From Octopus sinensis (taxonomy: Eukaryota): 52,798 nucleotides of DNA. Numbering within the stretch: the stretch's first letter is position 1; each line of letters opens with the position of its first letter. The notes under the pieces were generated by a model, which was not told where the DNA came from, ran no database searches, and saw only the letters and a list, made by a program, of their open reading frames with translations. The position numbers and the translations under genes were made by a program. Shown in pieces: positions 32,316-42,375 of this stretch. The DNA is taken from assembly GCF_006345805.1 (NCBI RefSeq), contig NW_021834149.1, positions 1 to 52,798 on the forward strand. The letters run 5' to 3'.

Positions 32316-32579
32316 TTATTATTATTATTATCTACTTTTAATCTGCATATTTGTTACAATCACTCGCCGAGACACACCCAGGGTCCTGGAGCGAGTGAAG
32401 GATAAGAGATATTGCAGTATTAATGAAAGCTTGAGGAAGAGAATTGACAGAAGCAGTAGCGAAATATTTTCCTTTAATACAGCACATACATTTCAATTGA
32501 TAGGGTTATCATTATTATTATTATTATTATCATTATTATTATTATTATTATTATTATTATTATTATTATTATTATTATT

Positions 32580-33135
32580 GAGTGAGAGAGCAGTTCATGC
32601 CATCAAAGTGACACTGGGGTAAAATATACGAAGCCCAATATACCCATCATGACTACCCGTCTGATAAAGGTACACCAGGCACATGCATCACAACCATATG
32701 TGCGCGACATGGTGATCTCATATCAAGATAAACAGCACATGACCTTGCAGGTGGGGCCCAGTTTGAATTTTCTTCAGGTTGAGTAGCCCATCCCGCTCAA
32801 ACGGTCCCCGAATAAGGGTTGTTTAAGGATGTTGAAAGAACCACCCATGTTTCCAGAGGTGAACTATTCAAACCCCAAAGCATCCCTCTCAACACATGGC
32901 TATGATGCTCCCCCACTACTTCTGCTCGTGATCAGAGATGCACATATCGTCAGCCACTAAGGGACATGCTCAACTGGTTAAGGTCAAACAACTGACAAGC
33001 AAATCTGTGGTATTGAGCAGAATATTTGCTGTAGCCCATCTTTTATACCAAGACAAAACACTGTACATGATAACACTTCCAATCAGTTAAGATCAGAAGC
33101 CATGAGAGCCACTGCCTGGTACTGCATCAGGGCAT
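32580..33135 (-). mobile_element. 556-bp non-coding insert between (TTA)n tracts; candidate non-autonomous TAA-targeting element
   Basis: Sharp boundaries into TTA repeats on both sides; no ORF and no clear pol III boxes; strand inferred only from neighbouring elements. Confidence 0.55.
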
Positions 33136-34156
33136 TTATTATTATTATTATTATTATTATTATTATTATTATTATCATTATTATTATTATTATTATTATT
33201 ATAAATTATTATTATTATTATTATCATTATTATTATTATTATTATTATCATTATTATTATCATTATTATTATCATTATTATTATTATTATTATTGTTATT
33301 ATTATTATTATTATTATTATTATTATTATTATCATTATTATTATTATTATTATTATTATAAATTATTATTATTATTATTATCATTATTATTATTATTATT
33401 ATTATCATTATATTATCATATTATTATTATTATCATTATTATTATTATTATTATTATTATATTATTATCATTATTATTATATTATTATTATTATTTTATT
33501 ATTATATTATCATTATTATTATTATTATTATTATTATTATTATTATCATTATTATTATTATTATTATCATTATTATTATTATTATTATTATTATTATCAT
33601 TATTATTATTATTAGTATTATTATTATTATTATTATTATTATTATTATTATTATTATTATTATCATTATTATTATTATTATTTATTATCATTATTATTAT
33701 TATTATTATTATTATTATTATTATTATTATTATCATTATTATTATTATTATTAGTATTATTATTATTATTATTATTATCATTATTATTATTATTATTATT
33801 ATTATCATTATTATTATTATTATTATTATTATTATTATTATTATTATTATTATCATTATTATTATTATTATTATTATTATTATTATTATTATATTATCAT
33901 TATTATTATTATTATTATTATTATTATATTATTATATTATTATTATTATTATTATTATCATTATTATTATTATTATTATTATATTATTATTATTATTATT
34001 ATTATTATTATCATATTATTATTATTATTATTATTATTATTATCATTATTATTATTATTATTATTATTATTATATTATCATTATTATTATTATTATTATT
34101 ATTATTATAATTATTATCATTATTATTATTATTATTATTATTATTATTATTATTAC
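33136..34156. repeat. ~1 kb (TTA)n tract with TCA interruptions (further tracts at 36431-36679 and 39673-40289)
   Basis: Directly visible. Confidence 0.98.
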
Positions 34157-36430
34157 TTTTTTTTCTTCTTTCAAATTTCTTCCATTTCTTGCCGAGTGTC
34201 TTCCCTACTCCTAGGGCAAAGAAACTCATAGTGTATATTGGTAGGCCATTAAACCAAACTCAGTAGTTCGTTCATTTTTTTTTTAATTTTTTTTTTTAAA
34301 GTTAAATTAAAATACATGAGCAGCAACAGTTCTCACATCGACAATGCTCTTCTCAATACGTGTGATGTACCAGTTAAGACAATCTTTTGCACTTCTTGCA
34401 GGGATGGTAAGCCAGGGATCATTTTCATATAATTTTTGGTTCCCTTCTTGATCATTCCTAGTGCTCCTACGATCACTGGTATTGTAACCGCCTTGAGATG
34501 CCACATTTTCTCAATTTCAATGAGTAGGTCTTTATATTTTCTGAGCTTGTCAAACTCTTTCGCTGAGATATTATGATCACAGGGGATGCTCATGTCGATC
34601 AATAAGCAAACTTTATTGTTTTGGTCTTTCACAACAATATCTGGTTATTGGCCTTGATGGTTCGGTCTGTATGTACTGGAAAGTCCCACAGAATGGTTAC
34701 ATTTTCTCCTTCAGTTACAGCCTCAGGGTGGTGATTATACCACTTGTCGGCAGTTTTGATATTGTAATGCCGACTTATTAGCCAGTGGAGATATTGGCCA
34801 ACTCTGTCATGTCTTAATTTATACTCCACTGGTGCTAAGACTTTACATCCAGAGATTAGGTGGTCCACTGTTTCAATCATGTCGTTGCAGAATCGGTATT
34901 TTGGGTCTGTTCCATTTTTCATCACATTGGCCTGGTAGTTCCGGGTTGATAGGCTTTGGTCTTGAGCAGCCAGGATGAAACCTTCCTTCTCTGCTTTTAG
35001 CCCTGAGCTCCGCAGCCACTGATGGGTTTGCTTCTGTTCAACATCAGCTTGTTTGCTGCGGGTCACATATTTGCCGTGCAGAGGTTTCTCCTCCCACCTA
35101 TCAGCCAATTGCTCGTGCGCTTTTTTCATTGCCATCATTTTCACCTTCTTTGCAACAATAGTTGCCGTACTTCCCTCGGGTTGTTCAGTTTGGGTATCCT
35201 GCACGAGAGCAATAGCAAATTTTTTGCTTTCCTTGATGATAGAATGAAGCTTCTTTCGTCTCTCGTGATTTTCCACGAGCTTTAGCATCCAGTCATTCGA
35301 TATTTCGAGATATTTGGCCAGTCCAATTATGGTTGTTTTGTAAGCTAGTTCAAATTGGATCAGGCCTCGACCTCCTTGGGCTCTGGGAAGGTAAAGGCGA
35401 TCTACGTCTGCCTTTGGGTGGTGCATCCTATTACAACTCAGCAGCTTGCGTATTTTTCTATCTATATTCTTTACTTCACTCATATTCCAGTTCAACACAT
35501 TGTAGCTATAAGTAACAACTGGAACTGCTAGGGAATTATAGCTAACACCTTGTTACGTGCATTTAGTTCAGATTTCAGGACTGCACGAACTCTCCTATAA
35601 CATTCCTTCCTGATTTTCTCTTTCATGCTTGCATGCTGAATACCAGAGCCTTCATTTATCCCTAAAATTTGTATGTCTGTTCTTGCTCAAGCTCTCTTAT
35701 GACTGTGTCAACATCTAACACGACTGAATTTGTGGTCTTCACTTTCCCTTTCTGGAAAGTGGCCTTGGCACACTTCTCAAGTCCAAACTCCATCCCGATG
35801 TCATCGCTGAATGATTTCACGGTGCGCAATAGGCCTTCAAGTTCATTATTGTCTTTACCATAAAGTTTTAAGTCATCCATATAAAATAGATGGCTTATTT
35901 TTTTATTGGCAATTTTATACCCATACCCTGTTCTGTTTAATTCACTTGTAAGGGGTATTAGGGCTATGCAAAATATTAAAGGTGAAAGTGAGTCACCTTG
36001 AAAAATTCCACAGTTGATGTTTATATTTTCTGAGGCAAGTACTCCATTAGAGTGGTATAATTGGAGATTCGTATTCCACAACGACATATTGTGCTTCAGG
36101 AAGTTTGAAATCACAGGGGAAATTTGAAGATGTCCAGCGATCTCAAGATCCATGGATGCGGTATACTGTCGAAGCCTTTTTATAGTCAATCCATGCGGTG
36201 CTGAGATTTCTGCGCTTGTTGTGACAGTTCTCAAGGATCGTACGATTGATTAGCAGTTGATCTTTGCATCCGTAAGAGCCTCGGCGGCACCCTTTTTGTT
36301 CGATGGGGAAAATATCGTTCTTCTCCATGAATGCATATGTTTTCTCCGCCAGGATAGATGTTAGGATTTTATACGTGGTGGATAGACAGGTTATAGGCCG
36401 ATAGTTTTTTGGAAGGTTGGTTTCGTTATT
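34157..36430 (-). mobile_element. R4/Dong-type RLE non-LTR retrotransposon, 5'-truncated copy A
   Basis: Near-identical to 36680-38945; RT and RLE split by single-base indels; A-rich 3' end running into (TAA)n. Confidence 0.95.
34333..36430 (-). pseudogene. Frameshifted RT-RLE ORF of copy A
   Basis: ORF pieces 36143-36328, 35662-36234, 34629-35498 and 34333-34632 tile the protein of copy B. Confidence 0.9.
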
Positions 36431-40600: not shown

Positions 40601-40627
40601 AATTCTCTTTATTATTATTATTATTAT

Positions 40628-41445
40628 TTCTTTTTATCACAGGTTTTGTTGGAGCACCTGGAGTCTTGCATGCGTAACAGGCTTTCTACCTGCAGCCTAC
40701 GGTACCATGCTTTTCAGCTATCTAATACTTTCCTGATTTTTCTGGCTGTGCTAAAAAGGCAAACGTTTTGTAAGAGTTCTACTGGGCACTCTATTCCAAT
40801 TTCCTGTGGGTAGCAGGTTACTACCAGTAACCTTGAGTAGCCACACGTTTCCAGTCGTCTTAGAACCCTCCTGGTAATCCTTGCTGTCCCGAAGATCTCT
40901 ACCGAGCATTTTATTCCAATCTCCTTCGACCATTTCTCTATATATTGGCTTACTCTTCCCAACGCATCAAATTCTTCTTATTTCAAACTTTAAGGGATTG
41001 TACCTTTTCTTCCTCTTTCTTTTCAATCCTGCAATCAAATGTACATGATGTGTCTATCAGTAAGCAACTTCCCTTTTCCTTATCTACAATCTTTATCTCT
41101 GGTCTATTATTTTCAAATTTCTTGTCTGAATTGGAAAGTCCCACAAAATCTTCCATTTTTCTGACTCCAATACTCTTCAACTCGATGATTGTACCATGTG
41201 TTTTCAGCTTCAAATCTCCATTTCTGGCACAGTTTCCAGTGTAGAAATTCTACAGTCTGGTCGTGCCTTCATTTCTTATTTTCTTCCTGTGCCAACTTCG
41301 GGCATTCTCCCACGATGTGTGCCACTGTCTCGTTCCAAGTTCCACAGGCTCTACATTTTCCTGGCACATTCTCTCCATATATTTTTTAAGGTGTTTGTTT
41401 CATCGCTTGATTTTGGGCTGCTACAATTAGCTTCTGTGTTTCTTT
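40628..41445 (-). mobile_element. Two adjacent older RLE 3' fragments (40628-40815 and 40816-41445)
   Basis: IGIECPVELLQNVCLFSTARKIRKVL; LIVAAQNQA, ETVAHIVGEC, NRPEIKIVDKEKGSCLLID, GTARITRRVL. Confidence 0.8.
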
Positions 41446-41529
41446 TATTATTATTATTGTTGTTGTTGTTGTTGTTGTTGCTGTTGTTGTTGTTGTTGTT
41501 GTTGTTGTTATTGTTGTTGTTGTTATATC

Positions 41530-42375
41530 TTTTACGCTTACTTTGTATTTGTACAAGTTGACTCCGAGTCTCACCCAGAGACCTCAAGAGACAACAAGCT
41601 AGAAGTTCAAGTTGATATTATGCCTAGAGTGTCATATATTTGCACAAAGTATTGTCCTAGAGAATGTTTTTTAAGAAAACATAAGAAAATTATAAGTTTA
41701 TTTTAAAATTTGAGATTACATAGACAGTATTTTGCATAGGATATGGGCAGTTCCTATGAGCACTATCTTTTGTATTTCTACCATTCTGGAGTTTCTTGGT
41801 ATCTGAGCTAGGTAGAAATCAGCCCCTTTTGCTATCATTCCTAGGGCACCTTTGTCAACAGGTATTGCTTTAGTCTTGAGGTTCCACATTTTGCCAATTT
41901 CTACTTCCAGATCTTTATACTTGCTCAGTTTTGGGAAGGTCTTGACAGAAACACTTATGTCGACTGGGACAGTCATATCAATGAGGCGGCATGTTTTTTG
42001 TCTGAAGTCCTTCGATATAATCTTTCAGTCTGAACGGTGAAGTTCCAGAGGAATGAGATGTGATCATTTTCAAGCACTAGATGTGCTTTGTGTTTCCACC
42101 AGTTTTCATCATGGGGCAGGTCCAAGTTCTTGCAAATTACCCAGTGAATATATTGCCCTGCTGTATTGCTGTATCATGCCTGTTGAGATACCCTGTAGGC
42201 ACAAGAAGACTGCACATGGAGACAACATGATCAACGGTTTTACTTTGCTGTTGAAACCCACATGTTGGGCAACTGCCGTTCTTTAATATGTTGCCATGGT
42301 AGCTGCTTCTAGGGAGGCATTGATCTTGGGCTGCTATGATAAGCCCTTCTGTTTCTGTTTTCCAGGTTACCATTG
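41530..42375 (-). mobile_element. Older RLE 3' fragment related to copies A/B
   Basis: ETEGLIIAAQDQCL...TVDHVVSMC...RHD and KLSKYKDLEVEIGKMWNLK...GALGMI...IQKIVLIGTAHIL..ILSM*. Confidence 0.88.

Follow-up and report, generated by a model that had tools for sequence, protein, structure and literature searches.

Dong elements of the R4 clade, such as Bombyx Dong, DongAg, DongBg and the ostracod Dong1/2, combine a reverse transcriptase (RT) and a REL endonuclease with a divergent N-terminal Myb/SANT domain that has no zinc fingers, and a (TAA)n target is stated for those of most insects, mollusks and cnidarians (PMC7998251, PMC3812793). For Bombyx Dong a 5' HDV-like ribozyme is also described (PMC3774820). 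Octopus LINEs annotated as Dong-R4 occupy 92.7 Mb in 51 families in O. vulgaris, with recent activity recorded for 5 families and 1129 insertions, and the word TAA is absent from the main texts of these reports (PMC13282606, PMC8967140). R2Bm requires upstream DNA (-38 to -7) but does not depend on the DNA downstream (PMC10499050). The elements analysed here are abundant like the octopus Dong-R4 LINEs, at about 2.3% of sampled sequence, and family A resembles Dong in its RT and RLE, its predicted Myb/SANT-like N-terminus without zinc fingers and its (TAA)n target. Multi-family co-oriented stacks, a floor on upstream repeat length, block-built tracts and a non-coding passenger, which we report below, are not described in the portions of the Dong accounts drawn on here (PMC7998251, PMC3812793). 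The openly accessible literature searched held no relevant report of a Dong-dependent SINE or of such stacks.

The window analysed is contig NW_021834149.1 of Octopus sinensis from position 1 to 52,798, that is, an entire unplaced contig of 52.8 kb. It contains a stack of six minus-strand pieces encoding the end of an RT/CCHC/RLE protein, together with a non-coding element that we call S. We consider it probable that this stack of co-oriented RLE-type LINE 3' fragments and S arose as strand-specific target-primed insertions, in the manner of R4/Dong elements, went into one (TAA)n tract again and again. The protein architecture, the single polarity genome-wide, the mixed ages and the nested order of the pieces are observed, and the mechanism given below is proposed from them.

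The left end of the stack is the (TTA)n tail (32315-32331) of a SINE-like abundant repeat on the plus strand (32104-32331), the third of three tandem copies starting at 31616, which we label tRNA/CORE-type. In a regular 1-Mb sample of the genome, taken as 100 10-kb windows at regular positions, the own strand of this repeat reads TTA in 20 of 21 adjoining tracts. E (32333-32505, minus strand; cluster C8) is the remains of an old 3' UTR from an RLE family; it adjoins the stack on the left, outside the range of an earlier note on this DNA, and its longer relative at locus L027 includes, as judged by eye, the end of the ORF. S (32580-33135, minus strand) is 556 nt long and lies in sense-strand (TAA)n, with a (TTA)n tract at 32506-32579 as its 3' flank and an interrupted 1020-bp (TTA)n tract, which contains a repeated 116-bp block, at 33136-34155. 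Two 5'-truncated minus-strand copies of family A follow, separated by a 256-bp (TTA)n tract (36426-36681): A1 (34156-36425) is frameshifted and spans RT, CCHC region, RLE and 3' UTR, and A2 (36682-39672) has a 634-codon open frame from RT to RLE. Beyond the degenerate 616-bp (TTA)n tract at the 5' flank of A2 (39673-40288) lie old minus-strand fragments, namely B (40289-40608; RLE end and UTR), C2 (40629-40804; the 3' tip of another family), C1 (40805-41445; CCHC and RLE region) and D (41525-42375; CCHC, RLE and 3' UTR), with a short TTA tract at the B/C2 boundary (40609-40628).

The earlier note had counted six minus-strand RLE-encoding pieces, and A1, A2, B, C2, C1 and D do carry RLE-region remnants, that of C2 being a weak coding match of merely about 23 codons (HMM E 0.029). 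The first piece in its range, which is S, codes for nothing: its longest open frame is 47/66 codons and it has no RLE match. The mixed TTA/TTG tract was correctly recognised and is located at about 41446-41524. Tracts of (TTA)n were said to lie mostly between the pieces, and such tracts are found, but C1 and C2 abut without repeat. A plus-strand copy placed within (TAA)n at 10.2-10.8 kb corresponds to a separate old RLE 3' fragment (about 10347-10816, plus strand) that is indeed followed by (TAA)n at 10817-10961, but about 170 bp of other sequence separates the element from its upstream tract.

Identity to other copies in the genome, taken from the best other match for E, B and D, is 87% for E, 99.8% for S, 98% for A1 and 98-99% for A2, and in the right half 86% for B, about 82% for C2, up to 84% for C1 and 85% for D. 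The order is therefore old-young-young-young-old, and not young on the left and old on the right as had been proposed, since old E adjoins the young copies on the left. Copies at 84-87% and 98-99.8% occur together, in support of a tract that was used repeatedly over a long period. The scored genome matches include neither an allelic nor an empty version of the locus. The proposal of several distinguishable families agrees with amino-acid identities of about 51% between A and D and about 33% between A and C1, which mark deeply separate lineages; an RLE tree of 43 rows, with no outgroup and some rows misaligned via frameshifts, was used for lineage separateness only.

The intact protein is represented by a natural copy, L125, in which a single frame of 1222 codons matches RVT_1 (E 3.9e-24), and A2 in the window gives an RT match with E 1.2e-20. 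In a PDB search R2 proteins were the sole matches (5/5 under E 0.001), the RLE aligning weakly to R2. A CCHC knuckle and the RLE PD..D motif are present in protein P0121, and among 80 full-length relatives they are found in 79 and 75, respectively; the codon for the first Cys of the CCHC is altered in A1 as well as A2. The N-terminal domain is missing from the truncated window copies. Its model from an intact relative confidently shows four helices (pLDDT 91), and a single-sequence fold prediction was poor. Its fold matches include Myb/SANT domains and the R2Bm N-terminus at middling Z-scores of 4.3-5.8 (for R2Bm residues 145-215, Z 5.2, rmsd 4.0, 70 aligned), with unrelated helical proteins scoring equally high; Foldseek and Pfam returned no match for the domain. 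Homologue searches and the ESM Atlas gave unnamed or hypothetical proteins only, with no named R4/Dong reference. Sequence and model together support a Myb/SANT-like N-terminus without zinc fingers in the intact relative, which is why we suggest that it works like R4/Dong. The Dong-type identity proposed earlier is supported at the level of domain architecture (RT, CCHC, RLE and Myb/SANT-like N-terminus). Family A is also like R2 in its RT and RLE homology and its Myb-like N-terminal domain, but membership of the R2 clade was rejected: R2 proteins carry C2H2 fingers at the N-terminus and insert into 28S rDNA, whereas an N-terminal C2H2 motif occurs in 0 of the 80 full-length relatives and the target is TAA.

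Dong targeting TAA is known biology, and the less ordinary part of the locus is the 556-base non-coding S. Its matches retain the 3' end and lose the 5' end (coverage 9 vs 35 of 44 matches), with the same polarity as the LINEs, and these features make it likely that S is a non-autonomous passenger mobilised in trans. Its partner would be a Dong-type protein, most likely that of family A, by which it would be copied. S and family A have 3' tracts of about the same length (32 and 31 bp, p 0.96), whereas the 3' tracts of family F differ from those of S (69.5 bp, p 1e-4). Like a classical SINE, S is short, non-coding, 3'-fixed and 5'-truncated, but it has no tRNA, 5S or 7SL head and no Pol III boxes: neither a tRNA (ARAGORN), nor Pol III boxes (simple patterns), nor an Rfam family was found in S. 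Entamoeba EhSINEs, which accompany R4-clade EhLINEs, and R2 SIDEs are LINE-dependent SINEs or short internally deleted elements. S is like them short, non-coding, 3'-fixed, 5'-truncating and of high copy number, with a target common to the autonomous element, and is set apart from them by having no tRNA, 5S or Rfam head, no Pol III boxes and no sequence in common with LINE ends. The last point comes from blastn against LINE 3' ends in the collected loci, which represent part of the families of the genome. We rejected S as a LINE 3' UTR, given that its upstream neighbours vary, and as a structured RNA family, given that Rfam matches the TAA flank only; its folding z of -3.6 is unspecific, and a scan with a core pattern found no HDV-like ribozyme core. 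Full-length and truncated copies have similar 5' tracts (35 vs 9 copies, p 0.63), and RNA-derived 5' repeats for full-length S were rejected on that ground. Young S copies have at least about 40 bp of TAA upstream and only 10-15 bp downstream, a floor that is weak in family A and absent in F and that parallels the upstream dependence of R2Bm. S may belong to the 893 recently active 'unclassified SINE' families of octopus annotations.

Strand specificity of the insertions, with TAA on the sense strand, had been claimed from this window and holds genome-wide beyond chance. A tract lies within 60 bp of 51 of the 98 element ends in the regular sample, and the sense strand reads TAA in 51/51; the 47 ends where it is absent, mostly of old copies, count against the model. 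Neighbouring element pairs in the same sample are co-oriented (13/13), element counts are overdispersed (p 2e-11), and co-oriented stacks of 3-5 pieces occur in 5 of its 100 windows. Comparable stacks, with 5-6 pieces over 5-12 kb, are found in the first 2.4 Mb of assembly contig C1. Sense TAA follows 30 of 30 3' ends of family A. Among 110 young copies of S, A and F, TAA is found directly at the 5' junction in 83 and at the 3' junction in 107, the 27 without it at the 5' junction again counting against the model. Since polarity and stacks are genome-wide, the locus is a sizeable instance of something ordinary in this genome. The idea of a long-lived strand-specific hotspot is upheld by polarity and mixed ages but not as something special to this site. 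In the proposed mechanism the protein would attach to upstream TAA repeats through its Myb-like N-terminus and nick the TTA strand with its RLE; reverse transcription, starting at this nick, would make the element strand the TAA strand. Each insertion would split the tract into two targets of equal polarity, so that a long tract would continue to collect copies.

Could the TAA instead be a mere tail carried by the elements, with no real choice of target and with stacks arising as later copies land in earlier tails? Nearly all 3' ends do have at least 10-15 bp of TAA even where the 5' side has none, and the 3' tracts of family F are long (median about 70 bp). Yet 5'-truncated copies too have TAA at the 5' junction (the 83 of 110 above), the 5' tract is longer than the 3' tract (median 63 vs 43 bp, p 0.002), and 57 of those 5' tracts are not preceded by any known element end. 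The 5' flanks largely refute this reading, to which we give hardly any credence. Serial template jumping from RNA to RNA, by which parts of stacks would be made in one event, is slightly less improbable but still very unlikely. It would suit the young neighbours with spacers of 11-35 bp at L091, L121, L085, L004 and L273 and the joining of C1 to C2 without TAA, but the mixture of old and young copies in the window is incompatible with a single event, and short spacers are the 3' floor expected if a later copy inserts into a 5' tract. Serial insertion into a common target remains our preferred reading of the stack.

The length of the tracts is a separate matter. Several tracts of 0.4-1.5 kb consist of repeated blocks, and the likely way in which the 0.25-1 kb tracts grew is that blocks tens to hundreds of bases long were duplicated. 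The earlier note had a hotspot that regenerates its own target and possibly so explains these lengths. Regeneration stands in the weak sense that insertion splits one tract into two targets, but mirrored interruptions lend no support to added repeats or a target-site duplication (2/43 against 1.1 permuted). Flank sums of 157 vs 71 bp (length-biased null) were discarded as evidence for regeneration, because 121 tracts leave room for a rare long tail. Against insertion as the cause of the lengths, just 2 of 13 sampled tracts of at least 100 bp touch such an element, and the element-free L077 is block-duplicated too. Both observations also weigh on a stronger form of the idea, in which the polymerase re-copies 25-250 nt of upstream target again and again while the 5' end is being joined, so that insertions lengthen the tract on their 5' side into a better target. 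Six of eight tracts of at least 300 bp end at an S or A 5' junction (4 on that side only, 2 between copies), 1 is on the 3' side only and 1 is element-free; as loci were picked around young elements the evidence lies in the side alone, and there 4 vs 1 falls short of significance. Block repeats are longer than in 19-20/20 shuffles in 5 of 9 long tracts, while the other 4, including the 256-bp and 616-bp tracts of the window, show no excess. The S 5' end is reiterated at L099, L101, L188 and L092. Younger copies have longer flanks (Spearman 0.39, p 2e-6), although long tracts are bigger targets and decay with age yields the same correlation. Such amplification is possible, but we think it somewhat doubtful. 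Less likely still is an assembly artefact in a poorly polished, unplaced long-read contig as the source of A1 and of the extreme tract lengths. The window being a complete contig, the many one-base slips in the tracts and the six single-base deletions of A1 relative to A2, four of them filled in contigs from other runs, would all fit, as would the private variants that A1 and A2 share. But 16 substitutions separate A1 from A2, as do multi-base indels with the family allele in A1, and tracts of 355-1482 bp also occur on the chromosome-scale contigs C6, C17, C19, C25 and C28. The private variants, among them a 27-mer with two rare variants that in 2.72 Gb is restricted to these two copies, also argue against A1 and A2 as independent insertions; A1 is likely a local duplicate of A2, or else A2 converted part of it. 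The A1 5' junction, which contigs from other sequencing runs do not bridge, has microhomology and a short duplication.

Tentatively, and with considerable doubt, these observations might be joined: Dong-type proteins would recognise about 40 bp of pure (TAA)n on the upstream side of the nick, would mobilise the headless 556-nt S with its tens of thousands of copies, and would extend the upstream tract by block re-copying as the 5' end is joined. Microsatellite and retroelement would in this way sustain one another: SINE tails would seed TAA, Dong and S would settle in it and amplify it, and out of this loop would come the kilobase tracts and the multi-family stacks. How an RLE-type protein selects foreign RNA could be learned from a non-coding passenger that has neither a recognisable Pol III head nor a tail shared with a LINE, and how the Myb-like domain sets the position of the cut from an upstream footprint on a featureless repeat. 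Should insertions lengthen their own target, retrotransposition would directly drive the growth of microsatellites, in a genome of which these elements make up about 3%. AAT microsatellite markers in O. sinensis are often at element junctions, as are 39 of the 121 sampled tracts.

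The window is a complete contig of 52,798 bases from a genome of 2.72 Gb, and its minus-strand stack has its left end in the TTA tail of a SINE-like repeat on the plus strand. From left to right follow E (32333-32505), a 3'-UTR remnant, the non-coding element S (32580-33135), two copies of LINE family A, A1 (34156-36425) and A2 (36682-39672), and the pieces B (40289-40608), C2 (40629-40804), C1 (40805-41445) and D (41525-42375), all on the minus strand. The spacers, in the same order, are TTA tracts of about 70, 1020, 256, 616 and 20 bp and then a TTA/TTG tract; C2 and C1 meet with no tract at all. 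A profile of the restriction-like endonuclease (RLE) end, built from the last 235 residues of full-length relatives, matches A1, A2, B, C1 and D strongly and C2 weakly (E 0.029), and finds no match in S or E. The six RLE-encoding pieces described in the earlier note are therefore recovered, although the first element within its range, S, is non-coding. A separate plus-strand piece at 10.3-10.8 kb also matches strongly, with other, unassigned sequence at 10201-10346 separating it from its upstream TAA tract.

Other features of the window can be mentioned here. The SINE-like repeat, a common one, occurs in three tandem copies at 31514-32331 (plus strand), two of them headed by (TAG)n tracts, and forms a second microsatellite-linked stack of opposite polarity, tail to tail with the Dong-type one. 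TAA tracts with no adjoining Dong-type element lie at 23802-23927 and 48488-48523. At 43633-45265 and 21065-21863 repeated open frames reveal local duplications, in tandem and about 400 bp long. Of the pieces at 7936-8187, 12101-12262, 15743-16045 and 22858-23190, two are fragments weakly resembling RT (about 35% identity) and two are frames of transposase-like appearance, for which a Pfam search gave no real match.

The window stack is an upper-end case of a genome-wide pattern. The strand-specific TAA orientation that the earlier note proposed holds in our regular sample of 100 stretches of 10 kb, taken at regular positions on contigs C1-C20. A protein search of this sample found 26 pieces, with nearby tracts reading sense TAA in 24 of 24 cases. 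A fuller library gave 34 LINE pieces and 15 S copies, leaving out protein-only matches below 38% identity; a tract lies within 60 bp at 51 of the 98 element ends and reads sense TAA in all 51. Family A loci likewise end in sense-strand TAA in 30/30 cases. Close neighbours in the sample are co-oriented in 13 of 13 pairs, element counts per stretch are overdispersed, and runs of 3-5 co-oriented pieces occur in 5 of the 100. Near the start of contig C1, in regions picked solely by a perfect (TTA)21 run, stacks of 5-6 pieces span 5-12 kb. By rough extrapolation from the sample, the LINEs make up 2.3% of the genome and S 0.6%, or some 40,000 copies. The common SINE-like repeat shows the opposite polarity in 20 of 21 adjacent tracts and may seed targets for Dong-type elements. 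At locus L027 (about 1350-1490) A and E-family copies lie tail to tail just where the tract switches from TAA to TTA, so orientation tracks the local strand. A small tRNA-like repeat with internal (AAT)n is also a target for copies of A, S and F, another RLE-type LINE family (junctions at L028, L087, L098 and L312; cluster C5).

As a proxy for age we used the best other match in the genome, with 40 candidates scored per search. This is 87% for E, 99.8% for S, 98-99% for the family A copies, 86% for B, up to 84% for C1 and 85% for D; for C2 it is 82%, among the compared loci only. Young copies are thus flanked by old ones on both sides, which contradicts the proposed gradient from young at left to old at right and is the pattern given by insertion into a pre-existing spacer tract. 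An alignment of A1 and A2 over 2115 columns shows 13 differences, but the two copies have eight minority variants in common, four of which none of the 31 other rows carries (two loci being included twice) and one of which is seen there once. A 27-mer with two of these variants has just two occurrences in the whole genome, one in each copy. Since one shared variant alters the codon for the first CCHC-knuckle cysteine, the shared state is unlikely to be inherited from an active source. A duplication could explain the resemblance, but all eight variants lie inside 1.08 of 2.12 kb, which makes partial conversion equally possible. None of the short-read contigs examined bridged the A1 junction.

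The leads we consider worth following are the long block-built tracts, a floor in upstream tract length, and S itself. Tracts in the regular sample have a median of 36 bp and a maximum of 162 (n=121), and three reach 194-246 bp with a laxer gap. The 616- and 1020-bp tracts of the window are extreme but not unique, as young copies elsewhere, on chromosome-scale contigs, adjoin tracts of 355-1482 bp. Block repeats exceed those of shuffled controls in five of the nine long tracts, among them the 1020-bp one and one that has no element; the other four show no such excess. Six of eight tracts of at least 300 bp end at a 5' junction, and at four loci (L099, L101, L188 and L092) the junction carries tandem reiterations of 23-100 nt of the S 5' end. 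These findings hint at re-copying during 5' joining, but the numbers are small, the loci were chosen around elements, just 2 of the 13 tracts in the sample that reach 100 bp touch an element, and no target-site duplication was detected. The earlier interpretation, a hotspot that regenerates its own target, is thus supported in part: for TAA polarity but not for regeneration.

The flanks were compared in 110 copies of at least 95% identity with both junctions within the locus; these are best matches, not a random draw, and leave out A and F copies running past the query. Both tracts are present in 82 of these young copies, with medians of 63 bp upstream and 43 bp downstream. Upstream tracts under 40 bp occur in 4 of 44 S copies, against 16.8 expected under a uniform cut (0 of 20,000 simulations), in 4 of 17 for family A (7.2 expected, p 0.04) and in 5 of 21 for F (5.9 expected, p 0.44). 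Twelve additional S copies repeat the asymmetry (67 versus 27 bp, p 0.013). Among the 13 short upstream tracts, another element's end lies directly upstream in six by motif and one by eye, three run on as degenerate repeat, two adjoin a small repeat and one is unexplained. PMC10499050 describes R2Bm as dependent on the DNA between -38 and -7 but not on DNA further downstream, which parallels the floor seen here, though not in F. An R2-like upstream footprint would be the simplest reading of this floor, again with the exception of F. In 43 young copies the main interruption on the element strand is TGA (45/61 upstream, 20/31 downstream), an A-to-G change for which RNA editing or plain mutation bias are candidate sources.

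Full-length S copies are 99-99.8% identical with TAA flanking both sides, and relatives down to 77% retain the 3' end but are shortened at the 5' end. Searches for Rfam, tRNA and Pol III signatures gave nothing for S, and it matches none of the LINE ends among the loci compared. Its polarity, its age, the way it is truncated and a family A-like 3' flank lead us to infer that S is mobilised in trans. No description of S turned up in the paper listings searched or in the PMC13282606 supplement, a search that covered neither the curated library nor papers behind a subscription. At L080-L082 (G000:C2:161574165-161575960) three S copies, 99.8% identical, form a tandem array that repeats every 620 bp, and the spacers between them are similar.

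The natural copy L125 of family A has a single 1222-codon frame with RVT_1, and all five matches under E 0.001 in a PDB sequence search are R2 proteins. An N-terminal domain of 86 residues, conserved across aligned relatives, has a predicted fold (pLDDT 91). Among its matches by structure are Zeste, plant and human TRF, ISWI SANT and R2Bm 145-215, at Z 4.3-5.8, the tool's middling class; two top-ranked rows, unrelated or distant, score above them. An N-terminal C2H2 motif is absent from all 80 full-length relatives. The family A protein agrees with R4/Dong as characterised in PMC7998251, namely RT, REL endonuclease, a divergent Myb/SANT domain, no fingers and a (TAA)n target. An RLE tree splits A, D, F, B, C1, C2 and the 10.3-kb family into lineages of their own, between which cnidarian, crustacean, insect and fish proteins fall; its deep nodes are weakly supported. 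We file the stack elements as working like R4/Dong, by architecture and target rather than by a tree with named references, and it is on these grounds that the R4/Dong-like identity given in the earlier note stands. At L032-L060 and L106-L125 family A reaches 0.85-1.75 kb or more upstream beyond the window copy, through a variable 5' region rich in microsatellites, and several copies begin near -845 to -880.
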